Counted from the stretch's first letter, positions 37,217 to 60,748 are shown. The stretch: 64,000 nt of DNA from an uncultured Actinomycetota bacterium (GCA_963825505.1 CAWGTL010000010.1:64080-128079); one strand, 5' to 3'. Numbers and translations: made by a program. Notes: a model not told the origin generated them from the letters alone.

Positions 37217-37260
37217 GCAGCAGACGGGCCAGGCGGGCTGCGGCGCAACGGATCTCGCGC

Positions 37261-41513: not shown

Positions 41514-41522
41514 TTCCCCCTC

Positions 41523-42590: not shown

Positions 42591-42620
42591 CCTCAGGTCC
42601 GGATCGGCCGGGCCGATGGG
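42591..42620 (+). promoter_or_regulatory. Sigma-28-type promoter for fliC
   Basis: cCCTCAGGTccggatcggccggGCCGATGGGtc, i.e. TCAG (42593-42596), N15, GCCGATGG (42612-42619). Confidence 0.65.
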
Positions 42621-42628: not shown

Positions 42629-42644
42629 AGCCCACGGAAGGGCT
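42629..42644 (+). promoter_or_regulatory. fliC leader stem-loop presenting ACGGAA (ANGGAN hexaloop)
   Basis: AGCCC-ACGGAA-GGGCT begins ~10 nt after the -10 element. A second ACGGAGG (42659-42665) forms the Shine-Dalgarno region. Confidence 0.5.
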
Positions 42645-42671
42645 ACGACACAACTCTCACGGAGGAACACC

Positions 42672-43472
42672 ATGTCCATGCGCATCAACACCAACGTCGC
42701 GGCGATGAACGCCTACCGGAACCTGTCGGTCACCGAGGGCGCGATGTCCAAGTCCCTGGAGAAGCTCTCCAGCGGCCTGCGCATCAACCGCGCTGCCGAC
42801 GACGCCGCCGGCCTCGCCATCTCCGAGGGCCTGCGCTCCCAGGTCGGTGGCCTCAAGGTCGCCGTCCGCAACGCCCAGGACGGCATCTCCGTCGCCCAGA
42901 CGGCTGAGGGCGCGCTCACCGAGGTCCACTCGATCCTGCAGCGGGTCCGCGACCTGACGGTCCAGGGGCTCAACGGCTCCAACAGCGCCGAGTCGCTGGC
43001 CGCCATCGACGCCGAGATCGACGCCATGGCCGAGGAGATCGGCGCGATCGGGGCCCGCACCCAGTTCAACGGGGTCGACCTGTTCGGCGACACGCTGACC
43101 TTCCAGGTCGGCGCCAACAGCGGCGACACCCTCGACGTCGACCTGAGCGGCGTGGACCTGGCTGCGCTGCAGACCACCGTCGCCGCTCTCGCGGCCGGCA
43201 CCGCCGACCCGGGCGCCGTCGACACCGAGATCACCGCGATCTCCACCGCCCGCGCCGGCCTGGGTGCTTCGCAGAACCGGCTCGAGCACAACATCAACTC
43301 GCTCAACGTCGCGATCGAGAACCTGTCCGCGTCGGAGAGCCGGATCCGCGACACCGACATGGCCGCGGAGATGGTCAACTTCACCAAGAGCCAGATCCTG
43401 CAGCAGGCCGGCACCGCGATGCTGGCGCAGGCCAACCAGTCCTCGCAGGGCGTGCTCCAGCTCCTGCGCTGA
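42672..43472 (+). CDS. fliC: Flagellin
   Basis: 266-aa ORF reading MRINTNVAAMNAYRNL...GLRINRAADDAAGLAISE...QILQQAGTAMLAQANQSSQGVLQLLR. Confidence 0.95.
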   Translation: MSMRINTNVAAMNAYRNLSVTEGAMSKSLEKLSSGLRINRAADDAAGLAISEGLRSQVGGLKVAVRNAQDGISVAQTAEGALTEVHSILQRVRDLTVQGLNGSNSAESLAAIDAEIDAMAEEIGAIGARTQFNGVDLFGDTLTFQVGANSGDTLDVDLSGVDLAALQTTVAALAAGTADPGAVDTEITAISTARAGLGASQNRLEHNINSLNVAIENLSASESRIRDTDMAAEMVNFTKSQILQQAGTAMLAQANQSSQGVLQLLR

Positions 43473-43483
43473 CCGAGCACGGC

Positions 43484-43514
43484 GCCGGCCCCCGCCCCAC
43501 CAGCGGGGGCCGGC
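43484..43514 (+). terminator. Perfect 12-bp stem-loop after fliC
   Basis: GCCGGCCCCCGC-cccacca-GCGGGGGCCGGC lies 12 nt after the fliC stop. It could attenuate read-through into fliD. Confidence 0.6.
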
Positions 43515-43545
43515 TCCGTGACCCCCACCCCGAGGAGGTGACCCG

Positions 43546-44823
43546 ATGGCCGGGATGCAGGTCAGCGGACTGGTGAGCGGTCTGGACACCGCCACCATCG
43601 TCAACCAGCTGATGCAGCTGGAGGCGGCACCTCAGAACGCCCTCAAGGCCAAGGTCACCCGAGCCGGCAGCCAGGTGACGGCCTACCAGGCCGTCAACAC
43701 CCGGCTCACCGCCGCGCTCGCGGCCGCCGACAAGCTCACGAAGGACGTGACGTGGGGGGCGGCAACCGCCAGCTCCTCCGTCTCGTCCGTCACCGTGACG
43801 AGCGCTCCGGGCGCCGTCACCGGCAGCCTGCGGTTCTCGGTCGACCGGCTGGCCACCGCCCACATGGTGGCCAGCCCGACCGTGGCGGCCGGCGGCTCGG
43901 TCGTCGAGGACGGCCTGACCGAGCTCACCCTCCTCCAGGGCGGGGTGGCCACGACCGTGCCGCTCGAGGGCAACGACCCGGTCTCGGTCGCCAAGGCCAT
44001 CAACGCCTCCGGTGCCGAGGTCCGGGCCGTCGCGCTGCCGGTCGCCAACGGCGTCTACCGCCTCCAGGTCACCTCCCTCGCGACGGGCGAGGCCGGCGCG
44101 TTCTCCGTGCAGGGGCTCACCGTCGACGACGCGGTCACCGTCCAGGGTCAGGACGCCCGGATCCTCGTGGGTGGCACGCTCCCGGTGCAGTCGGCCGACG
44201 GCCGGTTCACCGACGTGCTGCCCGGCACCACCTTCACCGTGGGTGCGGTCGTCGCCGACGTCCAGCTCACGGTGCGCAAGGACGACCTCGCCGTCACCGC
44301 CTCGGTCAAGGCCGTGGTGGACGCCCTCAACGCCGCGCTCAAGGAGATCGGCACGGCGTCGCGGTCCGGCACCGGCGCGCTCTCGGGCGACAGCCTGCTC
44401 AGGTCGCTGACGCAGCAGCTGGTCTCGACCGTCTCCGGTGGCACGACCTCCGCGGTCGCGGCCGGGGTGCAGACCACGCGCACCGGTGAGGTCGCCTTCG
44501 ACACCGAGCGCTTCACCTCGCTCCTGGCGTCCGACCCGACCAGGGCCCGGACCCTGGTGGAGGGCATCGCCTCCCGTGTCGCCGAGGTCGCTCGCGCCGC
44601 GTCGTCCGCGAGCGACGGCACGGTGACCGTCGCCGCGCGGCGCCGCCAGGACAGCATCCGCGGCCTGAACGAGCAGGTGGCCGCCTGGGACACCCGGCTC
44701 GAGATGCGGCGGGCGACCCTGGAGCGGCAGTACTCGGCGCTGGAGACCGCACTGGGCTCCTTGCAGAGCCAGTCCAGCTGGCTCGCCGGACAGCTCGGCG
44801 GCCTGCCGAGCTGGAGCAGCTGA
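43546..44823 (+). CDS. fliD: Flagellar filament cap protein FliD
   Basis: 425-aa ORF. Begins MQVSGLVSGLDTATIVNQLMQLEAAPQ and ends LERQYSALETALGSLQSQSSWL. Confidence 0.9.
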   Translation: MAGMQVSGLVSGLDTATIVNQLMQLEAAPQNALKAKVTRAGSQVTAYQAVNTRLTAALAAADKLTKDVTWGAATASSSVSSVTVTSAPGAVTGSLRFSVDRLATAHMVASPTVAAGGSVVEDGLTELTLLQGGVATTVPLEGNDPVSVAKAINASGAEVRAVALPVANGVYRLQVTSLATGEAGAFSVQGLTVDDAVTVQGQDARILVGGTLPVQSADGRFTDVLPGTTFTVGAVVADVQLTVRKDDLAVTASVKAVVDALNAALKEIGTASRSGTGALSGDSLLRSLTQQLVSTVSGGTTSAVAAGVQTTRTGEVAFDTERFTSLLASDPTRARTLVEGIASRVAEVARAASSASDGTVTVAARRRQDSIRGLNEQVAAWDTRLEMRRATLERQYSALETALGSLQSQSSWLAGQLGGLPSWSS

Positions 44824-44833
44824 CCCGACCCGC

Positions 44834-44906
44834 AGACCGACCCACCGACCTGTAGACAGACCGACAGACCAGACCGACAGACCGACCAGACCGACAGACA
44901 GACCGA
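44834..44906. repeat. Array of the octamer AGACCGAC (6 copies, dense block 44858-44906) in the fliD-fliS spacer
   Basis: Read directly: ...gcAGACCGACcc...gacAGACCGACagaccAGACCGACAGACCGACcAGACCGACagacAGACCGAggaggagga. It ends at the fliS ribosome-binding site. Confidence 0.85.
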
Positions 44907-44920
44907 GGAGGAGGACACCC

Positions 44921-45343
44921 GTGCACGCACCGACCTACACCGCCGCAGCCCGGGCACGGTTCGTCGACGACGCCCTCGCCACGGCGAGCCCCGCCGTCCT
45001 GCTCACCCGGTTGTACGACCGGCTGGTGCTCGACCTGGTGCGCGCGGAGACGGCCCAGCGGGACGGTGCCCGCCTCGCTGCCAGCTCGCAGCTGCTGCAC
45101 GCCCAGGACATCGTCGCCGAGCTGCTCTCCAGCCTGGACACCGCCGCCTGGGCGGGCGGCCCCGGGTTGGCCGCGCTCTACGGGTTCCTGCTCACCGAGC
45201 TGGTCGGCGCGAACGTGACCTGCGACCCGGAGCGCACGGCCTCGTGCCGCGCGCTGGTCGAGCCCCTGCGCGACGCGTGGCACGAGGCGGCCCGCGGCGC
45301 CGTCACCGGCGGCTCGGTCGTCGGCGTCGGCCAGGCGCTCTGA
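44921..45343 (+). CDS. fliS: Flagellin-specific export chaperone FliS
   Basis: 140-aa ORF (LLTRLYDRLVLDL...AQDIVAELLSSLD...LYGFLLTEL) directly downstream of fliD. Confidence 0.8.
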   Translation: MHAPTYTAAARARFVDDALATASPAVLLTRLYDRLVLDLVRAETAQRDGARLAASSQLLHAQDIVAELLSSLDTAAWAGGPGLAALYGFLLTELVGANVTCDPERTASCRALVEPLRDAWHEAARGAVTGGSVVGVGQAL

Positions 45344-45348
45344 GCCCC

Positions 45349-45702
45349 GTGCCGACGACCGTCGCGCCCCCAGCGCCCTGGCAGCGCGAGTGGGAGCTCG
45401 CGCTGGAGTCGCTCGAGCTCGACGTCTCGGCCGCCGAGGACCTGCTCCGCGCGCTGCACGCGCAGACCGACCTGCCGGACGGCGCCGAGGTGATGCGGTC
45501 GCGCTGGACGCCGCCGCCCGGCACCCTCGGCCCGATCCCGCGGCCGCTCGTCGAGCGGGCCCGCACGTTGCTGCAGCGCCAGCACGAGGTGGCCGAGCGG
45601 CTCGTCGTCGCCGCACGGAGCAACCGGGCGCACGCGCGCGTGGCGAACCAGGTCGCCGAGACCGGGTCCAGCGCACCCGTCTACGTCGACGTCGCGCTCT
45701 GA
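45349..45702 (+). CDS. Hypothetical flagellar-locus protein (117 aa)
   Basis: GTG 45349 lies 6 nt after the fliS stop, in frame in ORF 45244..45702. Helical, no family recognised. Confidence 0.55.
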   Translation: MPTTVAPPAPWQREWELALESLELDVSAAEDLLRALHAQTDLPDGAEVMRSRWTPPPGTLGPIPRPLVERARTLLQRQHEVAERLVVAARSNRAHARVANQVAETGSSAPVYVDVAL

Positions 45703-45703
45703 G

Positions 45704-45737
45704 CGGACGGCCGCTGGACCCGGACGGCCGCTGACCC
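45704..45737. repeat. 17-bp tandem duplication CGGACGGCCGCTG(G)ACC x2
   Basis: Read directly after the stop of the 117-aa gene. Confidence 0.7.
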
Positions 45738-45924
45738 GGGTGGGAGCAGCGGCCGGTGCGGGTCGCACCCGGACCGGTGACGGCCGGCCCGGCGCCGACC
45801 GGGTCGTTCACCCGCGCAGCCCCACCGCCGTCGCCGGTGTGGACGTCGTCGCCGCGGTGGGAGGACCCTGGGGGTGCGGGAGGTCCCCTCGTCGGCAGCG
45901 GGACGCGCGGGCGGGAGGTGCGCG

Positions 45925-46835
45925 ATGACCTACTCGCTCGCCAACGCGCCCGCCCTCGCCTACGACCTGGTGCGTCTGCCCGCACGGAGCGCAGGTCCTC
46001 GCCGTGCTGCGCACCGCCCTGGCCTGCGGCAGCGAGGAGCTCGCCGCCCTGGCCGCCCGGCACCCCGGCCCGCACCGCGCCGGACGGTGGGCCGCGGTGC
46101 AGCAGGTGGGTGCCCGCGAGCCGGCCCGGCGCGCGGTCGCGTCCGCCGGCGCCGCGGCCGACCTCGCCCTGGCCGGCGACGTCGCCGGCAGCACCGCGCT
46201 CGTGCGCCGGCTCGAGCGGGCGACGCTCGGCGACGTCGCGGCCCTGGACCGGATGCTGCGCCACGACGTCCTGGACTGGACCTGGCTCGGCGACCGCCGC
46301 CCGGGCGGTCTGGCGGTCCAGGACCCCGAGGCGTCCGAGGCGTGCGACGTGCTGGCCGACGCCGCCGCGTCCGCGTACTGCTCCGAGCGGCTCGACCCGG
46401 CGACGCGGCGGTCGATGGCTGCGCCGTTCCGCGGCGGCGCTGCTCCCCCTGCCCGACCGCACCGGCCACCCCGGCGTCGACCACGCCGTGCGGGTGCTGC
46501 GCGGCCTGGACGCGGACGGTCGCGAACGCTGGCGGCGCGCGGTCGACCACCAGCGGGCCGCGACCACGGCCTGGGCCCCTGCCATGCACGAGGCCACCGG
46601 CGCCCTCGGCGTGGTCGACCGCCTGCACCTGGCGGCCGACGCCCAGCTCGCCGCCGCCGAGGCCTTCCTCGCGGCCGGCTTCAGCACCCAGGACGCCGCC
46701 TACGGCGTCTGGAACGCGGTGAGCGGGAGCATCCAGGCCGTGGTGTCCGGCGACCTGCTGCCCGCTGCCAGCGCGCACGTCCTGCTGCGGTGCTGGCGCC
46801 GCGTCCACGGCTCGGCGCCCGACGACCGGTCCTGA
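45925..46835 (+). pseudogene. Hypothetical flagellar-locus protein (~302 aa), two extra bases (~45990, ~46435)
   Basis: MTYSLANAPALAYDLVRLPARS | QVLAVLRTALACGSEELAAL...MAAPFR | ALLPLPDRTGHPGVDHAVRVL...CWRRVHGSAPDDRS* across three frames, each with high GC3. Span length leaves remainder 2 on division by 3. Confidence 0.5.
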
Positions 46836-46869
46836 CCCGAGCCGGTGGTGAGCACCACCCGACCGGCGT

Positions 46870-46899
46870 CCTCAGGTTCGACCCCGAACGGCCGATGGG
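46870..46899 (+). promoter_or_regulatory. Sigma-28-type promoter upstream of the small ORF / EAL-HDOD unit
   Basis: tCCTCAGGTtcgaccccgaacgGCCGATGGGac, i.e. TCAG 46872-46875, N15, GCCGATGG 46891-46898. Confidence 0.6.
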
Positions 46900-46943
46900 A
46901 CTGGTGCGGGGCGCGTTCCGGCAGGTCCGGCACCGCCACGCGG

Positions 46944-46963
46944 GCGTCGCACGGATGCGGCGC
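46944..46963 (+). promoter_or_regulatory. Leader stem-loop with ACGGAT hexaloop
   Basis: GCGTCGC-ACGGAT-GCGGCGC (7 bp, one G-U pair). A second ACGGACGAGGGG (46973-46984) overlaps the SD of the small ORF. Confidence 0.45.
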
Positions 46964-46988
46964 ACCACCATCACGGACGAGGGGCACC

Positions 46989-47105
46989 ATGCACATCCCG
47001 ATCGCGGGCGAGCGCCGCGGCACCGCCGAGCGCCGGGGCACGGCCGAGAGGTCCCGTGGGCGCCGGGGTACCGTCGAGTCCTCGACACCCGGGGGGACCA
47101 CGTGA
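46989..47105 (+). CDS. Candidate 38-aa Arg/Gly-rich leader peptide, translationally coupled to the EAL-HDOD gene
   Basis: ATG 46989 follows GAGGGG. MHIPIAGERRGTAERRGTAERSRGRRGTVESSTPGGTT. Very high GC3. Its TGA (47103-47105) overlaps GTG 47102 of the next gene (GTGA). Contains an 18-bp tandem repeat (47010-47045). Confidence 0.4.
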   Translation: MHIPIAGERRGTAERRGTAERSRGRRGTVESSTPGGTT

Positions 47106-48406
47106 GCAGCGTCTGGAAGCTGTTGGAGCAGGTGCCCGAGGTGGCGCCCGCCACCCGCATCGCCCGGCAGGGGATCTACGACCGCGACGGCCGGCTCGTC
47201 GCCGGCGAGCTGCTCTTCCGCGGCCACCACGCCGACCAGGCCGGACTCCCCTCCACCTGGGACGCCGTGCACGACGACTCGCTGGCGGCGATCGCCGCCG
47301 AGGCGGCGGCCGACCAGGCCACCTCTCACGTCATCGTCACCACGTTCGGCGACTTCGGCGTCGAGCGGCTCGGTGGCGGACGACCGCTGTTCATCAACGT
47401 GACCCGCTCGTTCCTCGCCGGGGACTACCCGCTGCCGTTCGGGCCCGAGGGCGTCGTGCTCGAGATCCTGGAGAACGTCCAGGTCGACCAGGAGGTGCTG
47501 GACGGCGTCGCGGCGCTGCGCGAGCGCGGCTTCCGGTTCGCGCTCGACGACTACGTCGGCGAGGAGCACCGCGCCCCGCTCGTCGACCTCGTCGACGTCG
47601 TCAAGGTCGACGTCCTCGCCCCGGGCATCGACACCGCGGCGGTGGCCGCCGCCGTCCGGGCCCGCCGGCCCGGCGTCCAGCTGCTGGCCGAGCGGGTCGA
47701 GTCGGCCGAGGTGCTGCGCGCCTGCCACGACGCCGGGTACGAGCTGTTCCAGGGCTTCCACCTCTCGCACCCCGACGTGATGGAGTCGGCCAGCATCTCG
47801 CCGTCCCAGGTGATCTGCATGCGCCTGCTGCAGGCGCTCGGCGACCCGGCGTCGGACGCCGACGACCTCGAGGGGATCGTCGCGGCCGACCCGGGCCTGG
47901 CGGTGCGGGTGCTGCGCACCGCCAACTCGGCCAGCACCGGGAGCCGTCGCGAGATCTCCTCGCTGCGCCAGGCCGTGGTGCTGCTGGGGCCGCGCCCCCT
48001 GCGGTCGTGGGTGCTGCTCACGCTCCTCGGCGGGATGGCCGCCGGACGCCTCGACGACCTGGTGACGGTGCTCGCGCGGGCGGAGGCCTGCGAGGCCGTG
48101 GCCGCCGCCACCGGGGTCGACCCCGCCGCGGCGTACACCACCGGCCTGCTGTCGGGCGTGGCGCAGGTGCTGCGCACCCCGGGCGCCGAGGTCGCGCGCG
48201 ACGCCGGCGTCAGCGACGACGTGCGCCGGGCGCTCGCCGAGGGGGAGGGCCCGCTCGGCGAGGTGCTCCGGGTGGTGCGGGCCCACGAGCTCGGTCTCCC
48301 GGACGCGGCGCAAGGAAGCAGCCTGTCGCCCCTGGTGCTGTCGAGCCTGTGCCTCGAGGCCTGGGCCACCGCGCAGGCCACCGTCACGGCGATGGCCAGG
48401 GGGTAG
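47102..48406 (+). CDS. EAL-domain plus HDOD-domain signalling protein (c-di-GMP related)
   Basis: GTG 47102 is in frame in ORF 46004..48406. EAL-like core (GELLFR, VVLEILENV, RFALDDYV, VKVD, AERVE, ELFQGF) followed by HDOD-like LQALGDPASDADDLEGIVAADPGLAVRVLRTANSA. Confidence 0.8.
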   Translation: MSSVWKLLEQVPEVAPATRIARQGIYDRDGRLVAGELLFRGHHADQAGLPSTWDAVHDDSLAAIAAEAAADQATSHVIVTTFGDFGVERLGGGRPLFINVTRSFLAGDYPLPFGPEGVVLEILENVQVDQEVLDGVAALRERGFRFALDDYVGEEHRAPLVDLVDVVKVDVLAPGIDTAAVAAAVRARRPGVQLLAERVESAEVLRACHDAGYELFQGFHLSHPDVMESASISPSQVICMRLLQALGDPASDADDLEGIVAADPGLAVRVLRTANSASTGSRREISSLRQAVVLLGPRPLRSWVLLTLLGGMAAGRLDDLVTVLARAEACEAVAAATGVDPAAAYTTGLLSGVAQVLRTPGAEVARDAGVSDDVRRALAEGEGPLGEVLRVVRAHELGLPDAAQGSSLSPLVLSSLCLEAWATAQATVTAMARG

Positions 48407-48517
48407 TCCGCCCGGACCACCAGAACCGTTGCGCCGCTGCTCCGTCCGGGCGCACCGGCGGCGCTGTGTGGATCGCCGGCACCGCCCGGACGGCGGGTGA
48501 GTTTCCGCCCTCTCAGC

Positions 48518-48547
48518 GCTCAAGTAGTCCTCCCGTCCACCGATGGA
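48518..48547 (+). promoter_or_regulatory. Sigma-28-type promoter for the flgB...flgE hook-basal-body operon
   Basis: cGCTCAAGTagtcctcccgtccACCGATGGAct, i.e. TCAA 48520-48523, N15, ACCGATGG 48539-48546. Confidence 0.55.
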
Positions 48548-48553
48548 CTACAG

Positions 48554-48589
48554 GAGCGACGGATCGCTCGTGATGGCCACGGACCGGCC
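48554..48589 (+). promoter_or_regulatory. Two adjacent GGA-presenting stem-loops in the flgB leader
   Basis: GAGCGA-CGGA-TCGCTC (48554-48569) and GGCC-ACGGACC-GGCC (48575-48589). Confidence 0.4.
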
Positions 48590-48629
48590 GACTGTCTCTT
48601 CGTCATCAGGACGAGAACGGGGTAGGTCC

Positions 48630-48971
48630 GTGTTCAACGACGTCACCGGCGCGGCGCTCCACAGCGCCCTCACCGGCCTCGCGACCCGTCAGCGCACCAT
48701 CGCCGACAACGTCGCCAACATCCAGACCCCCGGCTTCCTCGCCGGCCGGGTGCAGTTCGAGGACGCCCTGCGCAGCGCGGTCTCCGGCGGCACCGGGGCC
48801 GTCGCGCCGACCACCGCGCGCTCCCTCGAGCCGACCCGCGAGGACGGCAACAACGTCAACCTGGACCACGAGGTCATCTCCAACATCGACACCGGCCTGC
48901 GGTACCAGCTGGTGACCCGCGCCGTCGACGACAGGTTCTCGCTGCTGCGGGCCTCCCTGCGGACGCAGTGA
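48630..48971 (+). CDS. flgB: Flagellar basal-body rod protein FlgB
   Basis: GTG 48630 is in frame in ORF 48543..48971. LTGLATRQRTIADNVANIQTPGF. The upstream part of the ORF overlaps the promoter and has low GC3. Confidence 0.88.
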   Translation: MFNDVTGAALHSALTGLATRQRTIADNVANIQTPGFLAGRVQFEDALRSAVSGGTGAVAPTTARSLEPTREDGNNVNLDHEVISNIDTGLRYQLVTRAVDDRFSLLRASLRTQ

Positions 48972-48981
48972 GCGGGCGACC

Positions 48982-49386
48982 ATGACCATCTTCAACGCGA
49001 TCGGCGTCGCCGGCACCGGCGTCACCGTCTACCGCAAGTGGCTCGACGCGGTCAGCGACAACATCGCCAACATCAACACCGTCCGGTCGACCGACGAGGA
49101 GGCGTTCCGCGCCAAGTACGTCGTGGCGCAGGCGGTCGACGGCTCCGGCACCGGCGGCGTGCAGGTCGGCGGCATCCAGCTCGGGTCGGCCGAGGGCCGG
49201 CTGGTCTACGACCCGCAGAACCCGCTGGCCGACGAGGGCGGCTACGTGCGCTACCCCGACATCGATCTGGCCAGCCAGATGACGCAGCTGATCATGGCCC
49301 AGCGCGGCTACCAGGCGAACCTCACCGTGATCGACCGGGCCAAGGACTCCTACCAGGCCGCCCTCGGGATCGGACGCGGGGCGTGA
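48982..49386 (+). CDS. flgC: Flagellar basal-body rod protein FlgC
   Basis: 134-aa ORF reading [11 protein letters not shown]...[18 protein letters not shown]. Confidence 0.92.
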
Positions 49387-54241: not shown

Positions 54242-54666
54242 ACGGGTTCCGGCTCGCCGGCCTGCTCCGGCTGCGCAAGCTGCAGCAGGACCACGCCGCC
54301 GCCGACCTCGCCCGGGCCAACGCCGCGAGCCGGACCGCGGCCGAGCTGGCCGTCCGTCGGCGGGAGGCGCTGGCGGCCCACCGGATGCCGGACGAGACCG
54401 GTGCCCTGGCGTTCACCGCGGCCGCAGCAGCGCGTGCCGCACTCAGCACCGCGGGCATCGAGTCCGCCGAGCACGCTGCGACCGCTGCGCAGGAGGCCGG
54501 CCAGGCCACCGACGCGTGGAACGTGGCCCGCGCCCGGAGTCGCGCCCTGGAGCACCTCGAGGAGCGCTTCGTCGAGGGCGTCGTGCGGGCCGGCCGTGAC
54601 GCGGAGCAACGGCGACTCGACGAGCACAGCAGCCGCAGACCGCGCCCGGGCGGTGAGGCGCCGTGA
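54238..54666 (+). CDS. fliJ: Flagellar export protein FliJ (by position and coiled-coil character)
   Basis: GTG 54238 overlaps the fliI stop. 142-aa helical protein (LRLRKLQQDHAAADLARA...). Confidence 0.6.
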   Translation: MNGFRLAGLLRLRKLQQDHAAADLARANAASRTAAELAVRRREALAAHRMPDETGALAFTAAAAARAALSTAGIESAEHAATAAQEAGQATDAWNVARARSRALEHLEERFVEGVVRAGRDAEQRRLDEHSSRRPRPGGEAP

Positions 54667-55667
54667 ACGGCCTGCTCGCAGTGCAGTCCCGCATCGCCGA
54701 GCTGCAGGGACGGATCGAGCAGCTCAACCCCGCGCGCACGACCAGCGCGACCTCGGTGTCGAGCCTGCAGTTCGCGGGTGCGCTCACTTCGGCGCTCGGC
54801 AGCACGGGCCCCGACGGCGTGGGCTCCACGCCGGGCACGACGGCCTCCGGCGGTGCGACCGGCGAGGCGCTGGTGGAGTCGGCCAGGAAGTACCTCGGCG
54901 TGCCCTACCAGTGGGGAGGCACCGACCCGGCCACGGGCCTGGACTGCTCCGCACTGGTGCAGCGCGCGATGAAGGACCTCGGCGTCGACGTCCCGCGCGT
55001 CGTGGCCGACCAGCGCCATCTGGGCACCGAGGTGCCCAGCCTGGCCCAGGCGCGCCCCGGCGACCTCGTCGTCCTCGGCGGGAGCAGGCACATCGGGATC
55101 TACGTGGGCGACGGCAAGATGCTGCACGCGCCGAAGACCGGTGACGTCGTGCGGATCGGCTCGGTCTACGAGACCCCCACCTCGATCCGGCGGGTGCTCC
55201 CGCAGTCCTCGGCGCCGTCCGTCTCGTCCGCGTCGTGGCCCTCGGCGGCGAGCGTCGCTTCCGGTTCCGGTGCCGGCATCTCCGCGGCGGTGCGGCGCTA
55301 CGAGCCGCTGTTCGCGCAGGCGACGGCCACGTACGGCCTGCCACCGGGCCTGCTCGCGGCGGTCGCCCAGGTGGAGTCGGCCGGCAACCCCTCCGCCGTC
55401 AGCCACGCCGGCGCGCAGGGCCTGATGCAGCTGATGCCCGCCACGGCGAAAGGGCTCGGCGTGAACGCGCTCGACCCGGCGCAGGCGGTGGACGGTGCGG
55501 CCCGGTTGCTGAAGGGCCACCTCGGCTCGTTCGGCTCGCTCGAGCTGGCGCTCGCGGCGTACAACGCCGGCCCGGGTGCGGTGCGCCGCTACGACGGCGT
55601 GCCGCCCTACGCCGAGACGCAGTCGTACGTGCGCAAGGTCGGCGCACTTCTCGGCGGTGTGCGATGA
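54663..55667 (+). CDS. Bifunctional peptidoglycan hydrolase: NlpC/P60 endopeptidase + SLT lytic transglycosylase (FlgJ-like role)
   Basis: YLGVPYQWGGTDPATGLDCSALVQ...HIGIYVGDGKMLHAP (NlpC/P60), then AVAQVESAGNPSAVSHAGAQGLMQLMPATA...AAYNAGPGAV (SLT). Coupled to fliJ and fliK by overlapping stop and start codons. Confidence 0.85.
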   Translation: MNGLLAVQSRIAELQGRIEQLNPARTTSATSVSSLQFAGALTSALGSTGPDGVGSTPGTTASGGATGEALVESARKYLGVPYQWGGTDPATGLDCSALVQRAMKDLGVDVPRVVADQRHLGTEVPSLAQARPGDLVVLGGSRHIGIYVGDGKMLHAPKTGDVVRIGSVYETPTSIRRVLPQSSAPSVSSASWPSAASVASGSGAGISAAVRRYEPLFAQATATYGLPPGLLAAVAQVESAGNPSAVSHAGAQGLMQLMPATAKGLGVNALDPAQAVDGAARLLKGHLGSFGSLELALAAYNAGPGAVRRYDGVPPYAETQSYVRKVGALLGGVR

Positions 55668-56824
55668 GCGTGCCCACGCTGGCCTCTCTGCCCACCTCCG
55701 CGCCCGCACGCGGGACGGCAGCGCCGTCCGGCGCGCGTCGTGACCACTCCGGTCAGGACGCAGGCGTCGCAGGCGATTTCGCTGCCGTGCTCGAGGCAAC
55801 CAGCTCGATCGCCTCCGCCGAGGACGTGACCGTCACCGAGGGGTCGACGGGCGACACCGAGACGACCACCGGGGCCGTGGCTCCCACCGGCGCCGTGCTC
55901 GGCAGCCCGGTCGTGCCGGTCGTCGTGCCGCCGGTGCCCGTGCCGCCGGTGCCCGTGCCGCCGGCGCCCGTGCCGGCCGACGAGGCGCTCGCGTCGTCCG
56001 GCCCCGAGCTCGTGACCCCGGCGCCGGCCACCCTGCCGGACGTGGCCCCGACCCCGGACAGCAGCCCCGCTGCCGCCGAGTTCGTCGCACCAGCTGTGGC
56101 CGCCGGACCCGTTGCCGCGCAGGCCGTCCCGTCCACCGCAACCTCCTCGCCGCCGTCCGAGGAGCGTGCGGCGGGCGGCGCCGCCCCCCAGGACGGGCGG
56201 GGCGCGCAGCCGGGACCAGCCGCGGGCGCGACGCCGTTCCCCGCGCCGGCCCCGGAGGCGACGGCCACCATCGGTGCGTCGACGAGTCTGCCCGAGCCGC
56301 AGCCCGTTTCGCTGCCGGCCCCGACCACCGGTCCCGCTGCTCCAGCCGCCGCAGCCGCCGTGCGCACGCTCGACACCGGCCAGGCTCCGGCTGCCCCGGC
56401 CGTCCCGCACACACCTGTGGTGGTGCCGCTCGCGACGCAGCTGGCACCGCGCGTCAGCAGCCTGCGCGCCCTCGGTGAGGGTGTGCACCGGCTGGTGATG
56501 CGGGTGCAGCCGGAGGAGATCGGTTCGGTCCGCGTTGTCGCCGAGATCACCTCGGACAGAGTGCGGATCGAGCTCCACGGCGGCACCGAGCAGGCCCGGG
56601 AGGCACTCCGAGCGGCCCTGCCCGACCTGCGGCGCGACCTGCTCGGCACGGACCCGCCGGGCACGCGCGCGGAGCTCGACCTGGGCTCCGCCGGGCGCCA
56701 GCCGGGACGCGACCGCGGCCGTCCGGGGACATCCGGCGAGCCACCCGGCCCGGACGGCGTGCCCGCACCGGTGCAGCTCGTGCTGCCGCGCGCGGGCACT
56801 GGGCGTCTGGACGTCGTGACGTGA
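55664..56824 (+). CDS. fliK: Flagellar hook-length control protein FliK
   Basis: ATG 55664 is in frame in ORF 55235..56824. Pro-rich linker; C-terminal LVMRVQPEEIGSVRVVAEITSDRVRIELHGGTEQAREAL. Confidence 0.8.
   Translation: MSVPTLASLPTSAPARGTAAPSGARRDHSGQDAGVAGDFAAVLEATSSIASAEDVTVTEGSTGDTETTTGAVAPTGAVLGSPVVPVVVPPVPVPPVPVPPAPVPADEALASSGPELVTPAPATLPDVAPTPDSSPAAAEFVAPAVAAGPVAAQAVPSTATSSPPSEERAAGGAAPQDGRGAQPGPAAGATPFPAPAPEATATIGASTSLPEPQPVSLPAPTTGPAAPAAAAAVRTLDTGQAPAAPAVPHTPVVVPLATQLAPRVSSLRALGEGVHRLVMRVQPEEIGSVRVVAEITSDRVRIELHGGTEQAREALRAALPDLRRDLLGTDPPGTRAELDLGSAGRQPGRDRGRPGTSGEPPGPDGVPAPVQLVLPRAGTGRLDVVT
55925..55978 (+). repeat. 15-bp tandem repeat GTGCCGCCGGTGCCC x3.6 encoding (VPPVP)n in FliK
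   Basis: Read directly. In-frame coding repeat in the Pro-rich linker. Confidence 0.8.
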
Positions 56825-56930
56825 TGCGTACCAACCGAACTGGTCGCACTTCTGGCTTGAGTCGGAAGGCGTGCGTGCCGACAACACCCCAGGGCGACCG
56901 AGGTGGTCACCCGCGACGAAGGAGGACGGC

Positions 56931-57368
56931 GTGCCGGTCGACGGCGTGATCACAGGCACTCCCATCAGCCAGGTCCTCGGGCAGAACGTGAACGGCACGT
57001 CCGGCCCGAAGAACGAGCTCGACAAGGACGCCTTCCTCAAGCTCCTCGTGGCGCAGCTGCGCTACCAGGACCCCACCGCCCCCATGGACACCTCGGCGTT
57101 CATGGCGCAGACGTCGCAGCTCACGAGCGTGGAGAAGCTCAGCGAGCTGGCCGAGACGACGCGGGCGTCCTTCGACGTCCAGCAACGTCTCGGCGCGGCG
57201 TCCCTCGTCGGCCGCCAGGTCTCCTGGACCGCCGAGGACGGCTCGACCTCCAGCGGCACGGTCTCCGCGGTGACGCTGCTGGGCACCACCCCTCTCCTGC
57301 GCGTCGGTGACACGGATGTCGCCCTCGACAAGGTGACCGCGGTCGTCGCGGGCACCGGCTCCGCCTGA
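56931..57368 (+). CDS. flgD: Flagellar hook assembly/capping protein FlgD
   Basis: GTG 56931 follows GAAGGAGGA. LDKDAFLKLLVAQLRYQDPTAPMD. Confidence 0.9.
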   Translation: MPVDGVITGTPISQVLGQNVNGTSGPKNELDKDAFLKLLVAQLRYQDPTAPMDTSAFMAQTSQLTSVEKLSELAETTRASFDVQQRLGAASLVGRQVSWTAEDGSTSSGTVSAVTLLGTTPLLRVGDTDVALDKVTAVVAGTGSA

Positions 57369-57465
57369 CGACCCTGCCTGACGGCTCAGCCAGACAACCG
57401 ATATCCACCACCACGCACCGGGCGCCCGAGGCGCCGCGAAGACACCCTTCGAGGAGGGACCCCCC

Positions 57466-58647
57466 ATGCTCCGTTCCCTGTTCTCCGGCATCAGCGGGCT
57501 GCGCTCGCACCAGACGATGATGGACGTCACCGGCAACAACATCGCCAACGTCAACACCAACGGCTTCAAGTCGTCCAGCACCCAGTTCCAGGACACCCTC
57601 AGCCAGCTGCTGCGCGCCGCCGGTGCACCGCAGGGCACCACGGCCGGCTCCAACCCCTCGCAGGTCGGGCTCGGCGTGCGGGTCGCGGGCGTCACCACGA
57701 ACTTCGGCCAGGGCTCGGCGCAGCAGACCGGCCGCAGCCTCGACCTGATGATCAACGGCGACGGCTTCTTCGTCACCCAGTCGGTCAACGAGACGCTCTA
57801 CACCCGCGCCGGCGCGCTGACCTTCGACGTCAACGGCACCCTGATCACCAGCGAGGGCTACAAGGTCCAGGGCTGGCAGGCCGACGCCTCGACCGGCGCG
57901 ATCAGCACCACCGGCGGCGTCGGCGACATCAAGCTGCCGATCAGCACGCTGATGCAGCCGCGCTCCACAGGCACCACGACGTTCGAGGGCAACCTGCCCG
58001 CCGACGCCGCGACCGGCACCACGCTCCCGGCCTCGATCGACGTCTACGACGCGCAGGGCACCCGCTCCACGCTGTCGGTGACCTTCCGCAAGGACGACGC
58101 CGACACCTGGTCGGTGCTCGAGGGTGCCACCGTCCTCGGCACGGTCGACTTCACCGGCGGCGGCGGCGCCCACACCACGACCCCGGCCACGCTGACCTCC
58201 GCGTCCGGCATCGACCTGGACCTGTCGACCGTCACCGGCTTCTCCGGCACGACGTCGATCAAGACCAGCGGCCAGGACGGCTACCAGGTCGGCAGCCTCA
58301 CCGCCTTCACCATCGGCCCGGACGGCGTCCTCACCGGCATCTTCAGCAACGGCCTGAAGCAGCCCGTCGCGCAGATCGCCACCGCGACGTTCGCCAACGT
58401 GGCGGGCCTGGAGAAGGCCGGCGGCTCGACCTACCGCACCACGGTCAACTCCGGCTCGGCCCGTGTCGGCGCCCCCGGTCTGGACGACCGCGGCGCCCTC
58501 TCCAGCGGCATGCTCGAGATGTCGAACGTCGACCTCGCCGCCGAGTTCACCAACCTGATCATCGCCCAGCGCGGTTTCCAGGCGAACTCGCGCGTCATCA
58601 CCTCCTCGGACGAGCTGCTCCAGGACCTGGTCAACCTCAAGCGCTGA
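57466..58647 (+). CDS. flgE: Flagellar hook protein FlgE
   Basis: 393-aa ORF reading MLRSLFSGISGLRSHQTMMDVTGNNIANVNTNGFK...LEMSNVDLAAEFTNLIIAQRGFQANSRVITSSDELLQDLVNLKR. Confidence 0.95.
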   Translation: MLRSLFSGISGLRSHQTMMDVTGNNIANVNTNGFKSSSTQFQDTLSQLLRAAGAPQGTTAGSNPSQVGLGVRVAGVTTNFGQGSAQQTGRSLDLMINGDGFFVTQSVNETLYTRAGALTFDVNGTLITSEGYKVQGWQADASTGAISTTGGVGDIKLPISTLMQPRSTGTTTFEGNLPADAATGTTLPASIDVYDAQGTRSTLSVTFRKDDADTWSVLEGATVLGTVDFTGGGGAHTTTPATLTSASGIDLDLSTVTGFSGTTSIKTSGQDGYQVGSLTAFTIGPDGVLTGIFSNGLKQPVAQIATATFANVAGLEKAGGSTYRTTVNSGSARVGAPGLDDRGALSSGMLEMSNVDLAAEFTNLIIAQRGFQANSRVITSSDELLQDLVNLKR

Positions 58648-58656
58648 CGCATCCCC

Positions 58657-59623
58657 TCACGCGGCGCCCGGCGGCCCCGACCCCTGCGGGGGCGGGGCCG
58701 CCGCGCTGCCGGCGGCGCCTCCCGCTGCGGCGCCCGTGCGGCGCAGCACCTCGGCCACCTCGCGCACCGAGGGGGTGCGGCTGCGACGGGTGAGCAGGAA
58801 GACCTCGCGACCCACCGCGGCGGACCGCAGCGGGCGGACCACCACCCCGGGCGGGTCGAACCCGAGGACGAGGTCGGGCAGCAGCGCGCCGGCGCCGGTG
58901 GTGCGGACGAGCTCGAGCTGGATGAGGAAGTCGTCGGAGGTGTACCGCACGTCCGGCTCGAAGCCGCCGATCTCACGGCACGCCCGCACGTGCATGTCGT
59001 GGTGCCCGGTCCCGGGCTGGCTGGTGGTCCACGGCATCTCGGCCAGGCGCGACAGCGGCAGCCGGTCCACCGTCGCCTCCGGGTGGTCGGCGGGCAGCAC
59101 CAGGTCGATGCCCTCGCGCAGGACCGTCTCGCGCTCGAGCTCCGGGTGCAGCACCCGCGGCTGGCCCACGTACTCGTCGCCGACGAGGACGTCGAGCTGG
59201 TGCAGGCGCAGGGCGGGCACGGCCTGCTCGACCTCGGACTCGGTGGCCTCGACCCGGATGCCGGGGTGGGTGCGCGACAGGGTGCGGATCGTCGGCGCCA
59301 CCATCCGCAGGAACGCGGACTGGAAGGCCGCCACCCGCACCGTGCCCGCGAGCCGGCCGGCCGCGACGGCGGCGACCTCCGCCTGCGCCGCGTCCATGCC
59401 CGTCGAGCAGCCCGTCGGCGTGCCGCACCAGCACCGCGCCGGCCTCGGTGAGACGCACACCGCGCCCGACGCGCTCCAGCAGCGCCGTGCCGGCCTCGCG
59501 CTCGAGCGCGGCGAGCTGCTGGGAGATCGCGCTGGGGGTGTACCCGAGAGCGCGCGCGGCGGCGTGCAGCGTCCCGCGGACGTGCACCTCCCGCAGGACG
59601 CGCAGCCGGCGCAGGTCGATCAC
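58657..59623 (-). pseudogene. LysR-family transcriptional regulator, one extra base near 59399
   Basis: HTH MIDLRRLRVLREVHVRGTLHAAARALGYTPSAISQQLAALE...VLVRHADGLLDG (ORF 58973..59623) joins MDAAQAEVAAVAAGRLAGTVRVAAFQSAF... (ORF 58657..59460). Confidence 0.85.
58670..58702. terminator. Strong GC stem-loop after flgE (overlaps the 3' end of the convergent LysR gene)
   Basis: GGCGGCCCCGACCCC-tgc-GGGGGCGGGGCCGCC, a 15-bp stem with one mismatch. Confidence 0.5.
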
Positions 59624-59717
59624 CAGGACGATCCGATCATCCGTTCAGGATATCTGCACGGTTCGGTGAAGCAGGTCGCGCTGGACGTGAACGATCGTCC
59701 GGCCTCACGCTGGCCGG

Positions 59718-60629
59718 GTGGGAGCCCTCGCCTGTGTCGCGTCCGCCGTCGCCTTCGGGCTGCTGGCGGTGTTCGCCAAGCTGGCCTACGGCGAGGGCGT
59801 CGACCTCGACGCCCTGCTGCTCCTGCGCTTCGGTGCCGCCGGGGCGCTGCTGCTGGCCGTCGCGGCCTGCACCGGGCGGCTGCGCGGGCTGCACCCGCGG
59901 GTCGTGGTGGGCGGTCTCGCGATGGGCGCCGTCGGTTACGCCGCCCAGTCCGGGCTCTACCTCGCTGCGCTCGGACGGGTCGAGGCGTCCCAGACGGCGC
60001 TGCTGTTCTGCGGCTACCCGCTCCTGGTGATGGTCGGTGCCGTGCTGACCCGCCGCGAGCCGCCGTCGCGCCGCCGGGGCGCGGCGCTGGTCCTGGCGCT
60101 GCTCGGCGTCGCGCTGGTGCTGGGCGGCGCCTCCGCGGGCGAGGTCGACCTGCTCGGCGCAGCCTGCGCGATCGGGTCCGCCGTGGTCTACACCGGCTAC
60201 ATCCTGGTCGGCGACCGCATCGGCGCGCCCGACCCGCTGGCGTTCGCGGCCCTGGTGTGCGGGGGCGCGGCCTGCACCTTCGGCCTGTGGTCGCTCGTGC
60301 ACGGCGCGCCCGGCCTCGGCTTCGGTGCCGGCGGCTGGCTCTGGCTCGCTCTCATCGCGCTGGTGAGCACCGTCGCGGCGATCGTGCTGTTCTTCGCGGG
60401 GCTGGCGCGCGTGGGCCCGACCGCCGCCGCGCTGCTGTCGACCGTCGAGCCCGTCGTCACCGTCGTCGGTGCGGCGCTGGTCTTCGGCGAGGTGCTCACG
60501 CTCCAGCAGGCGGTCGGCGGCGTGCTCGTCCTCGGCACCGTCCTGCTCGTGCAGTGGCCGGCGCGACGCCGGCTGCCGGCGGCGGCCCCGGCTCCGCCTG
60601 TGCCGGAACGGGTCCCAGCGGGTCGCTGA
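59718..60629 (+). CDS. EamA/DMT-family transporter
   Basis: 303-aa protein with ~10 TM segments. Divergent from the LysR gene. Confidence 0.8.
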   Translation: MGALACVASAVAFGLLAVFAKLAYGEGVDLDALLLLRFGAAGALLLAVAACTGRLRGLHPRVVVGGLAMGAVGYAAQSGLYLAALGRVEASQTALLFCGYPLLVMVGAVLTRREPPSRRRGAALVLALLGVALVLGGASAGEVDLLGAACAIGSAVVYTGYILVGDRIGAPDPLAFAALVCGGAACTFGLWSLVHGAPGLGFGAGGWLWLALIALVSTVAAIVLFFAGLARVGPTAAALLSTVEPVVTVVGAALVFGEVLTLQQAVGGVLVLGTVLLVQWPARRRLPAAAPAPPVPERVPAGR

Positions 60630-60666
60630 GGCGACGGCCCGCGCAGGCAGCTGCGCGTGCCGAACT

Positions 60667-60696
60667 CCTCAGGTGGTCGGGGTCCCGGCCGATGGG
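60667..60696 (+). promoter_or_regulatory. Sigma-28-type promoter for flbD-motA-motB-fliL
   Basis: tCCTCAGGTggtcggggtcccgGCCGATGGGag, i.e. TCAG 60669-60672, N15, GCCGATGG 60688-60695. Confidence 0.62.
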
Positions 60697-60705
60697 AGTC
60701 GTGAA

Positions 60706-60721
60706 GGCCCACGGACGGGCT
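60706..60721 (+). promoter_or_regulatory. flbD leader stem-loop with ACGGAC hexaloop
   Basis: GGCCC-ACGGAC-GGGCT matches the fliC leader hairpin at 14 of 16 positions. A second ACGGAC (60740-60745) lies within the SD region AAGGACGGAC. Confidence 0.5.
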
Positions 60722-60748
60722 GCCACGCACCATCCAAGGACGGACGTC

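Follow-up and report, generated by a model that had tools for sequence, protein, structure and literature searches.

The stretch of DNA analysed here, called the window throughout, spans 64 kb and holds a high-GC actinobacterial flagellar cluster. A sigma-70-family sigma factor gene adjoins fliC, a synteny common to all related loci, and its position and the type of promoter nearby suggest that its product is FliA/WhiG-like. When the window was searched with the pattern CTCARG-N13-17-CCGATGG, five matches were found (0.06 expected), one before each of five leaders, and we therefore take them to be five promoters of the FliA/WhiG type. The features are collected in Table 1.

Table 1. Leader elements and associated genes in the window
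Feature	Position	Strand	Basis
fliW, last gene of its operon	38247-38663	-	Pfam FliW, E = 8e-26
Fifth FliA/WhiG-type promoter (41523-41550) and flgN-flgK-flgL-fliW leader	41493-41550	-	
Sigma-70-family sigma factor gene adjoining fliC	41649-42569	+	Pfam Sigma70_r2 and r4
fliC promoter, FliA/WhiG type, CTCAGGT-N-GCCGATGG	42592-42619	+	Pattern search; conserved in L001
fliC hairpin AGCCC-ACGGAA-GGGCT (site 1, ANGGAN hexaloop)	42629-42644	+	Sequence; MFE and centroid folds; ortholog covariation
fliC site 2, CACGGAGG, overlapping the Shine-Dalgarno sequence, 7 nt before ATG at 42672	42658-42665	+	Sequence
EAL-HDOD unit promoter, FliA/WhiG type	46871-46898	+	Pattern search; conserved in L001
EAL leader hairpin GCGTCGC-ACGGAT-GCGGCGC	46944-46963	+	Sequence; folds
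EAL leader site 2, CACGGACGAGGGG, on small-ORF ribosome-binding site	46972-46984	+	Sequence
38-codon leader ORF, stop overlapping (GTGA) the probable GTG start of the EAL-HDOD gene	46989-47105	+	
EAL-HDOD protein gene, putatively c-di-GMP-related	47102-48406	+	Pfam EAL 3e-11, HDOD 6e-20; start inferred
flgB operon promoter, FliA/WhiG type, CTCAAGT-N-CACCGATGG	48519-48546	+	Pattern search
flgB hairpin 1, GAGCG-ACGGAT-CGCTC (GAGCGACGGATCGCTC)	48554-48569	+	Sequence; MFE and centroid folds
flgB hairpin 2, GGCC-ACGGACC-GGCC	48575-48589	+	Sequence
GGTCCGTG at flgB ribosome-binding site and GTG start	48625-48632	+	Exact complement of CACGGACC (48578-48585) in hairpin 2
flbD-motA-motB-fliL promoter, FliA/WhiG type	60668-60695	+	Pattern search
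flbD hairpin GGCCC-ACGGAC-GGGCT	60706-60721	+	Sequence; MFE and centroid folds
flbD site 2, AAGGACGGAC, at ribosome-binding site before ATG at 60749	60736-60745	+	Sequence

Together the five leaders comprise 323 nt and contain eight copies of ACGGA, their most frequent pentamer, against 0.124 expected at the rate of the whole window (Poisson P = 1.2e-12). When the leaders themselves were shuffled with dinucleotides preserved, the mean was 1.15 copies and the maximum seven, so that none of 20,000 shuffles reached eight. The original prediction had estimated that ACGGA was far above chance and that four of five leaders carried it in pairs; both points are borne out, with pairs behind the fliC, EAL, flgB, and flbD promoters. 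Five of the eight copies lie in hairpin loops and three at ribosome-binding sites; the ten other plus-strand copies between 36 and 64 kb all fall within coding sequence. The hairpins and motifs are where that prediction had placed them, except that flbD site 2 starts at 60736 and not, 2 nt off, at 60738.

Four leaders of this one cluster thus show A-N-GGA in hairpins. In both the MFE and centroid folds, ACGGA occupies a loop in the fliC, flbD, and EAL hairpins and in flgB hairpin 1, and the window contains five hairpins in which ANGGA is enclosed by 5 bp or more of stem. Folding energies of whole leaders are ordinary relative to shuffles (z between -2.05 and +0.6), and a scan of 36-64 kb with the Rfam 15 covariance models (E <= 5) returned chance-level matches alone, none at the leaders. 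The fliC, flbD, and flgB hairpins begin 7-10 nt past the -10 element, which would put them right at the start of the transcript. At 52 and 53 nt, the fliC and flbD leaders have much the same length, their layout is alike as well, and their hairpins are identical at 14 of 16 positions. Measured from the A of one ANGGA to the A of the next, the two sites are 25 nt apart in fliC, 25 or 29 nt in flbD, and 22 nt in the EAL leader. In flgB a further hairpin, at a distance of 20 nt, takes the place of the Shine-Dalgarno sequence as the second site; this tandem pair lies right at the 5' end, with about 40 nt between it and the start codon, and the MFE fold pairs GGTCCGTG with CACGGACC. The flgN-flgK-flgL-fliW leader has a hairpin, GAGGTCAC-ACCCC-GTGACCTC (41493-41513), without an ANGGA loop, and the sole GGA near the start lies within GAGAGGACG at the ribosome-binding site; four relatives (L002, L006, L003, L004) have ACGGA in this leader.

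Conservation of the leaders among relatives

Orthologous leaders were compared across dozens of flagellated actinobacteria and low-GC fliW-csrA loci. They share a layout with a fixed A-N-GGA loop, variable at N and closed by a C-G pair, on stems that show strong covariation; a second ANGGA lies on the Shine-Dalgarno sequence, its GGA 20-29 nt 3' of the loop site. The original prediction had likened the sites to those of CsrA/RsmE, and the invariant A-N-GGA-N hexaloop, its C-G closure, the covarying stems, and the second GGA on the Shine-Dalgarno sequence all support that architecture.

The fliC leader supplies the largest sample. In 57 of 75 orthologous leaders, an ANGGA(N) loop located at -38 to -52 is closed by 4 bp or more of stem, against a background of 15.6% for all ANGGA in the fliC-ortholog loci, and most of the leaders have ANGGA at -9 to -19 as well. 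These hairpins use 18 different inner stems. Across the 50 distinct ones, 87.1% of cells are paired (54.1% in shuffles), both sides change at all 7 pairs, and covariation scores 0.729, compared with 0.160 in shuffles, none of which (500 in all) reached the observed value. The loop is closed by C-G in 48 of the 50, and the C-ANGGAN-G consensus holds over 50 orthologs.

The check on covariation had been set beforehand, and its outcome is that the fliC and flbD stems covary strongly around a fixed GGA, while flgB is conserved with stems that vary little. At flbD, two relatives with about 60% FliG identity (L002 and L006) have GCGACCC-ACGGAC-GGGTCGC, with an identical loop and a stem that is altered yet complementary; at the position of site 2 they have AGGGACGGA(T/C). 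At flgB, an equivalent of hairpin 1, GAGC-ANGGAN(N)-GCTC, is found in 20 of 20 distinct actinobacterial leaders aligned. The same 20 keep hairpin 2, with N = C/G/A/T while GGA never varies and an outer stem pair that is GC in 14, CG in 3, and GU in 2. As the flgB stems hardly vary, they offer weak evidence of covariation (score 0.122 vs 0.080). The long-range flgB pairing shows a compensatory change, as L002 and L006 have CACGGAAC/GTTCCGTG in place of GGTCCGTG/CACGGACC.

A much closer relative, L001 (assembly CAVVQA01, 97% FliG identity to the window), differs in its leaders by several substitutions and indels, none of them in the hairpins or ACGGA boxes, and this comparison argues that both are under ongoing selection in the lineage of the window. 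The EAL leader was compared with this one near-identical relative: its hairpin is identical despite differing flanking leader sequence, and the leader ORF has 32 codons instead of 38, an 18-nt difference that stays in frame, with its end and the EAL-HDOD overlap unchanged.

The same hairpins, those of the fliC and flgB leaders, occur in actinobacterial loci with csrA directly after fliW (L081, L088, L101, L105, L126, L155) and in low-GC fliW-csrA-fliC loci (L159, L162). The C-ANGGAN-G consensus is the same in csrA-linked and csrA-unlinked lineages, and of five actinobacterial csrA genes inspected, four have ACGGA on the ribosome-binding site of csrA itself.

FliW and the location of csrA

The original prediction had recognised fliW in the window, as the Pfam match confirms, and had no csrA in view. 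Indeed, the 64 kb gave no tblastn match to CsrA of Bacillus, E. coli, or actinobacteria, and a search of the window's ORFs in all six frames with a CsrA HMM (filters off, E <= 10) was likewise empty. Most relatives have csrA directly after fliW, in the usual order flgK-flgL-fliW-csrA; here that place is empty of csrA, and the stop codons of fliW and a convergent MeaB/ArgK-like gene are separated by about 10 nt. L084, L167, L096, and L129 likewise have fliW at the end of its operon, in L084 and L167 on short contigs. In L171, three genes separate fliW from csrA, which forms a unit of its own, so adjacency of the two genes is typical and not obligatory.

Aligned to 5DMB (whose numbering we use), the FliW of the window keeps the equivalents of N108, A111, and Q124, which cluster at the contact with CsrA N55; Q124 and N108 are reported to be invariant where FliW and CsrA are both encoded. 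Position 58, to which loss-of-function mutations of B. subtilis FliW map, is L and not F in all seven fliW-last lineages of the FliW tree. Because this group retains both the ANGGA sites and the CsrA-contacting FliW residues, csrA of this genome is most likely encoded elsewhere, outside the 64 kb. The original prediction had left a choice between csrA elsewhere and a different RNA-binding factor; the former appears better supported, since csrA stands apart from fliW in L171 and the sites and FliW residues are conserved in this lineage.

An ancestral loss of csrA is conceivable because the seven fliW-last lineages, window included, form one clade in the FliW tree and have no csrA in the available DNA; in five other fliW-last lineages (L093, L096, L102, L129, L134) none lies in the 12-17 kb around the flagellin gene. 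The sites would then be real protein-binding RNA elements, and a non-homologous or very divergent protein, perhaps controlled by FliW, would read ANGGA in this genome, the Thalassiella-like L084 and L167 (fliW-last as well), and those five. The common F-to-L change, in the CsrA-N55-proximal cluster, fits such a loss, as does the precedent of multiple independent losses of the CsrA-FliW system (PMC13443453). If true, the CsrA code would now be read by a protein other than CsrA, which FliW might still control. We nevertheless think this improbable. A change of reader is hard to reconcile with a loop consensus that is unchanged between csrA-linked and csrA-unlinked lineages; FliW retains Q124 and N108; L153 has L at position 58, yet csrA is present; no conserved replacement ORF follows fliW in the fliW-last loci; and L171 offers an example of simple displacement of csrA.

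A candidate CsrA circuit and its alternatives

Our preferred reading is that the hairpins and the ACGGA boxes at ribosome-binding sites are probably sites for a CsrA-family (PF02599) protein within an actinobacterial flagellin-FliW-CsrA homeostasis circuit. We infer from sequence that CsrA itself reads them in this genome. A CsrA dimer would bind the A-N-GGA loop near the mRNA 5' end (site 1) and also the Shine-Dalgarno ANGGA 20-29 nt downstream (site 2), and in doing so would block 30S binding on fliC, on flbD of the flbD-motAB-fliL operon, and on the EAL leader ORF. Translational coupling of that ORF to the EAL-HDOD gene would bring the latter within the block. On the flgB operon, a bound protein would more likely alter mRNA stability or the pairing between hairpin 2 and the flgB start region. 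FliW would release CsrA-mediated control upon flagellin export; like the direction of regulation, its role in this circuit is what we infer. If this is true, translation of four units behind FliA/WhiG-type promoters is tied to the state of filament assembly.

The hairpins could instead be 5'-terminal stabilisers or copied promoter-leader modules, with ACGGA kept by descent or as an extra Shine-Dalgarno-like landing site and no trans-acting reader. The position of the fliC, flbD, and flgB hairpins at the RNA 5' end, the likeness of the fliC and flbD leaders, and the fact that GGA belongs to the Shine-Dalgarno sequence are all in keeping with this. It is an unlikely account, in our view, in that a stabilising hairpin needs no fixed loop, and here the loop is invariant across 18 different inner stems, in lineages that have replaced their stems entirely, with N varying and GGA constant. 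Low-GC organisms in which csrA adjoins fliC have this loop too, and ACGGA also lies on the ribosome-binding site of csrA. Stabilising and reader-bound roles for the hairpins are mutually compatible.

That the inverted repeats, which lie at about +2 to +20 of four promoters in one regulon, are DNA operators of a dimeric transcription factor just downstream of the promoters is very improbable, as operators would conserve half-sites around a free centre, whereas here the arms vary but stay complementary around a fixed, non-palindromic ACGGA(N), the stems include G-T (G·U) pairs that form in RNA only, and the second ACGGA copies at ribosome-binding sites lie outside the repeats.

Comparison with known systems

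The CsrA reading can be set against several described systems. In Bacillus subtilis, the hag leader is controlled by CsrA and FliW through the Hag-FliW-CsrA partner switch (Yakhnin 2007 and Mukherjee 2011, in the accounts given by PMC13443453 and bioRxiv 10.1101/2020.07.02.184341). As there, the flagellin mRNA arises from a sigma-28-type promoter and has one GGA in a hairpin loop and another on the Shine-Dalgarno sequence, fliW belongs to a flgN(yvyG)-flgK-flgL-fliW operon, and the FliW residues contacting CsrA N55 are conserved. Unlike in Bacillus, where csrA follows fliW, csrA is absent from that place and from the 64 kb. Furthermore, hag is the target described in those two accounts of Bacillus (PMC13443453, bioRxiv 10.1101/2020.07.02.184341), whereas here three further units have paired sites: the flgB operon, flbD-motAB-fliL, and EAL-HDOD.

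In C. jejuni, FliW is the CsrA antagonist, CsrA binds mostly flagellar class 2 and class 3 mRNAs, and the flaA 5'UTR has two ANGGA-loop stem-loops, the second over the ribosome-binding site, with compensatory changes in support (PMC4894983). Control of several flagellar operons by CsrA is thus already known, and the leaders of the window resemble flaA in having ANGGA-loop stem-loops and a site at the ribosome-binding site. The present case differs in phylum and in its set of leaders, in the deeply conserved tandem hairpin pair of the flgB leader, far from the start codon, and in the inclusion of a c-di-GMP-type gene with a leader ORF.

High-affinity CsrA sites, as in RsmE-hcnA and SELEX RNAs, reportedly take the form of an A/U-C-A-N-GGA-N-G-U/A hexaloop. 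The EAL leader, flgB hairpin 1, and most fliC orthologs match this with an ACGGAU loop closed by C-G; those RNAs are gammaproteobacterial or were selected in vitro, and the present sites are predicted from sequence. In the E. coli flhDC leader, CsrA at the 5' end is said to protect the mRNA from RNase E. The flgB leader likewise has two CsrA-type sites at its extreme 5' end, distant from the start codon; gene and nuclease set are different, and the likeness covers the layout of the sites, not the direction of regulation. Taken as a whole, these comparisons support the view that the leaders of the window represent an actinobacterial version of the known flagellin-FliW-CsrA feedback loop, one in which csrA does not lie beside fliW.

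The flagellar cluster and the loci compared with it

By Pfam assignment, the flagellar gene cluster runs from about 38.2 kb to the end of the window at 64 kb. On the plus strand, the sigma-70-family sigma gene (see table) is followed by fliC, fliD, fliS, two ORFs, and the EAL-HDOD gene; then by flgB, flgC, fliE, fliF, fliG, fliH, and fliI; by a lytic transglycosylase/NlpC gene, fliK, flgD, and flgE; and, after a LysR/EamA insertion, by flbD, motA, motB, and fliL. In this stretch of 73.8% G+C, a pattern search for CTCARG-N13-17-CCGATGG returned five matches versus 0.06 expected, one upstream of each of flgN, fliC, the EAL gene, flgB, and flbD, and these correspond to the sigma-28-type promoters of the original prediction.

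Orthologous loci from other genomes and MAGs carry handles beginning with L. A FliG-based scan of reference genomes gave seven useful actinobacterial loci: a MAG that is 97% identical (L001), two MAGs at ~60% identity (L002 and L006), an Angustibacter MAG (L005), Actinoplanes (L003), Symbioplanes (L004), and an Actinomycetes MAG at 43% identity (L019). A further 80 loci came from a metagenome scan based on flagellin, and several others from genomic-context look-ups.

Some features of the cluster are recorded here for their own sake. The EamA gene between flgE and flbD is also present in L001 and is not found in L002 or L006, where flbD directly follows flgE. Neither of the two ORFs 3' of fliS has a Pfam match; in the longer one, conservation with L001 is limited to the C-terminal third. 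The GAGCGCTCAAGGA element is common to the window and L001, the adjacent sequence differing; it includes an AAGGA and a CTCAAG box resembling the -35 element of the flgB promoter.

Features of the window and of orthologous loci, with coordinates
Feature	Position	Strand	Remarks
MeaB/ArgK-like GTPase gene	~36900-38240	plus	convergent with fliW
fliW, in flgN-flgK-flgL-fliW	38247-38663	minus	Pfam
GAGCGCTCAAGGA	41600-41648		upstream of the sigma gene
Sigma-70-family sigma gene	41649-42569	plus	Pfam
Two ORFs	45390-46835	plus	114 aa and up to 359 aa; 3' of fliS, 5' of the EAL promoter
Leader ORF of the EAL-HDOD gene	46989-47105		38 codons
EAL-HDOD gene start (probable)	47102		GTG
CACGGACC	48578-48585		in flgB hairpin 2
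GGTCCGTG	48625-48632		flgB ribosome-binding site and GTG start
Hairpin GGTGAC-ACGGAT-GTCGCC	57306-57323		inside 3' end of flgD, ~145 nt 5' of flgE start
Further ANGGA hairpins	e.g. 19817, 25848, 28875, 57312		within coding sequence or including a start codon
LysR-type regulator and EamA transporter genes	58657-60629	minus; plus	inserted between flgE and flbD
csrA ribosome-binding site, L081	L081:10480-10575		CC-ACGGA-(A/G)GG
csrA ribosome-binding site, L085	L085:3680-3768		CC-ACGGA-(A/G)GG
csrA ribosome-binding site, L169	L169:4900-5004		CC-ACGGA-(A/G)GG
csrA ribosome-binding site, L171	L171:4900-5004		CC-ACGGA-(A/G)GG
csrA unlinked from fliW, L171	L171:1362-5321		3.7-Mb MAG contig

ACGGA hairpins and their conservation

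All of the predicted hairpins and ACGGA boxes were found, either exactly in place or displaced by no more than 2 nt. Taken as the sequence between the -10 element and the start codon, the five leaders sum to 323 nt and contain eight copies of ACGGA, which is their commonest pentamer. The window-wide rate on both strands would give 0.124 copies (Poisson P = 1.2e-12), and dinucleotide-preserving shuffles of the leaders average 1.15, with none of 20,000 reaching eight; the excess over chance, originally an estimate, is thus borne out by calculation. The 10 other plus-strand copies between 36 and 64 kb all lie within coding sequence. The window holds 183 ANGGA motifs; for 14 of them the flanks form a stem of 5 bp or more, and the leader hairpins account for five of the 14. 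In both MFE and centroid structures, ACGGA is looped out in the fliC, flbD, and EAL hairpins and in flgB hairpin 1. The overall folding energy of the leaders is not unusual, and therefore folding evidence alone would be weak. The flgN leader of the window, considered as a possible fifth target, is without ANGGA, the loop of its hairpin being ACCCC; in relatives it has an ACGGA, but inside a stem. An Rfam search matched no family for any of these leaders. The hairpin inside flgD could be an internal CsrA-type site or a chance occurrence, its conservation being confounded by coding constraints.

In fliC, 57 of 75 orthologous leaders place an ANGGA(N) loop on a stem of 4 bp or more at positions -38 to -52 relative to the start codon, usually with a second ANGGA at -9 to -19; such a stem is found at only 15.6% of all ANGGA in the same loci. 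The hairpins use 18 different inner stems. For a set of 50 distinct hairpins, the paired fraction of cells is 87.1%; shuffling lowers it to 54.1% and sliding the 3' partner to 28-49%, although the choice of the best-stemmed ANGGA per leader within a 40-nt range somewhat favors pairing. Two-sided changes occur at all seven pairs, C-G closes the loop in 48 of the 50, and the covariation score is 0.729 versus 0.160, a value that none of 500 shuffles reached. The flbD stem changes from GGCCC/GGGCT (window and L001) to GCGACCC/GGGTCGC (L002 and L006), still complementary, while the loop ACGGAC and an (A/G)GGACGGA box at the ribosome-binding site are the same in all four. For these two genes the orthologs display the covarying stems that the original prediction had proposed to look for, here around a fixed GGA.

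For flgB, the tandem hairpins GAGC-ANGGAN(N)-GCTC and GGCC-ANGGANN-GGCC are present in all 20 distinct actinobacterial leaders aligned, with GGA constant and N represented by all four bases, but covariation is only modest (0.122 versus 0.080; 4 of 500 shuffles reach the observed score) because the stems hardly vary. At the outer pair of hairpin 2, 14 leaders have GC, three CG, and two GU.

The EAL leader can be compared only with L001, where the hairpin and box are identical and the sequence 5' of both differs. Behind the box lies the 38-codon leader ORF (MHIPIAGERRGTAERRGTAERS...), with a duplicated RRGTAE unit; its stop is overlapped (GTGA) by what is probably the GTG start of the EAL-HDOD gene. 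Its L001 counterpart has 32 codons, the 18-nt difference being in frame, and many amino-acid changes, with the same end and overlap. Across all leaders, substitutions and indels between the window and L001 spare the hairpins and ACGGA boxes, which argues for selection on these sites in the window's own lineage.

CsrA as the candidate reader

The elements share the consensus C-A-N-GGA-N-G in a hairpin loop, with another GGA, 20-29 nt distant, on the Shine-Dalgarno sequence, and this matches the described architecture of CsrA/RsmA sites. The same hairpins also occur beside csrA itself. L081, a Kineosporiaceae MAG, has the operon flgN-flgK-flgL-fliW-csrA together with these hairpins in its fliC and flgB leaders, and csrA follows fliW in L085, L088, L101, L105, L123, L126, L155, L166, and L169 as well. 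In the low-GC L159 and L162, fliW-csrA lies just 5' of a fliC leader reading TTCCAC-ACGGAT-GTGGAA ... TTCAAGGAGG. The conserved C-ANGGAN-G hairpins and their presence in csrA-bearing loci support the CsrA/RsmE reading originally put forward. Four of the five actinobacterial csrA genes examined have an ACGGA on their own ribosome-binding site, L166 having CCGGAGGA instead, which suggests that CsrA is autoregulated. The pattern of conservation led us to reject a reading of the inverted repeats as DNA operators.

We infer that initiation on fliC, flbD, and the EAL leader ORF would be blocked by a CsrA dimer that clamps the loop site together with the Shine-Dalgarno site, and that FliW would relieve the block once flagellin leaves the cell. 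Given the probable overlap of the EAL start with the small-ORF stop, whatever regulates the small ORF would act on the EAL gene as well, through translational coupling. For flgB, CACGGACC is the exact reverse complement of GGTCCGTG and pairs with it in the MFE fold, so that a protein bound to hairpin 2 could expose or sequester the start region. A compensatory pair, CACGGAAC / GTTCCGTG, occupies this alternative pairing in L002 and L006; the alternative pairing itself is not seen in Actinoplanes or L081, and may therefore be local to part of the group.

The absence of csrA from the 64-kb window was confirmed. In tblastn searches with the CsrA sequences of Bacillus, E. coli, Kineosporiaceae, and L085 as the four queries, no hit was better than E = 0.27, and an HMM derived from 120 actinobacterial CsrAs and applied with filters off to all six-frame ORFs of the window found nothing at E <= 10; the same HMM recovered every csrA of the control loci. 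The stop of fliW lies ~10 nt from that of the convergent MeaB/ArgK-like gene. That gene is seemingly split over at least two reading frames, with the P-loop part in one and the N- and C-terminal parts in others, which suggests assembly indel errors or a pseudogene.

The fliW gene also ends the operon in L084 (FliW 73% identical to that of Thalassiella azotivora), L093, L096, L102, L129, L134, and L167. What comes after it is a terminator-like inverted repeat in L084, a response regulator gene (OmpR-type) in L096, a hydrolase gene in L129, and a convergent BKACE gene in L167. With such differing neighbors, the MeaB-like gene of the window included, there is no conserved replacement ORF after fliW. 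In a neighbor-joining tree of FliW (no bootstrap; L167 left out), the window and the first six of these loci form a single clade nested among csrA-linked actinobacterial lineages, which suggests one ancestral loss or relocation of csrA.

That csrA was lost and another protein replaced CsrA as the reader of the ANGGA sites is, by our estimate, improbable. The leader hairpins are kept in all seven lineages of this clade, as are FliW N108, A111, and Q124, which surround CsrA N55; Q124 and N55 have been reported as invariant where both proteins are encoded. FliW position 58 (5DMB numbering) is L in all seven and F in 11 of 12 csrA-linked lineages, L153 having L there with csrA still present. In B. 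subtilis FliW, the F58S change, located in the cluster near CsrA N55, causes loss of function. As the seven lineages are one clade, L at this position may be only a clade marker. The L171 locus demonstrates that csrA can be displaced from fliW: between them lie a pair of glycosyltransferase genes and a formate/nitrite transporter gene of opposite orientation, and csrA keeps its ACGGA ribosome-binding site. Our estimate is that the csrA of the window's organism likewise lies elsewhere in the genome. An explanation by which Nocardioides-type genomes lack CsrA, the genus being absent from a 2015 CsrA/FliW table, was rejected, as csrA follows fliW in L088. We place L088 with this type from the ranking of database FliWs, those 88% identical to its own standing beside named Nocardioides and Marmoricola entries.

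A predicted regulon and its precedents

The predicted regulon is compact and could be tested in flagellated actinobacteria, some of which, like Actinoplanes, can be cultured. It would comprise flagellin and the flgB basal-body operon and, in the window's lineage, also the stator operon (flbD-motAB-fliL) and the EAL-HDOD gene, so that motor supply, and perhaps c-di-GMP signaling, would be coupled to filament assembly. The fliW-last clade is a natural experiment on whether FliW and the RNA sites can be maintained once csrA is no longer linked. The literature searched contained no study of CsrA control of flagellin in Actinobacteria. What is new here is the phylum, the deeply conserved tandem-hairpin leader of the flgB operon, which is in no RNA family library, the inclusion of the stator operon and the EAL-HDOD gene in the window's lineage, and a clade with csrA not linked to fliW.

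CsrA control of flagellin in Bacillus and Campylobacter is textbook knowledge, and the fliC part is the classical hag/flaA arrangement, here in another phylum. The flgB leader, with both sites at its extreme 5' end, ~40 nt from the start, resembles the E. coli flhDC leader, whose 5' end is protected by CsrA. Multi-operon flagellar control by CsrA-FliW is already known from Campylobacter: in C. jejuni, the CsrA targets are mainly class 2 and class 3 flagellar mRNAs, and the flaA 5'UTR has two ANGGA-loop stem-loops, which are supported by compensatory changes and the second of which spans the ribosome-binding site (PMC4894983).
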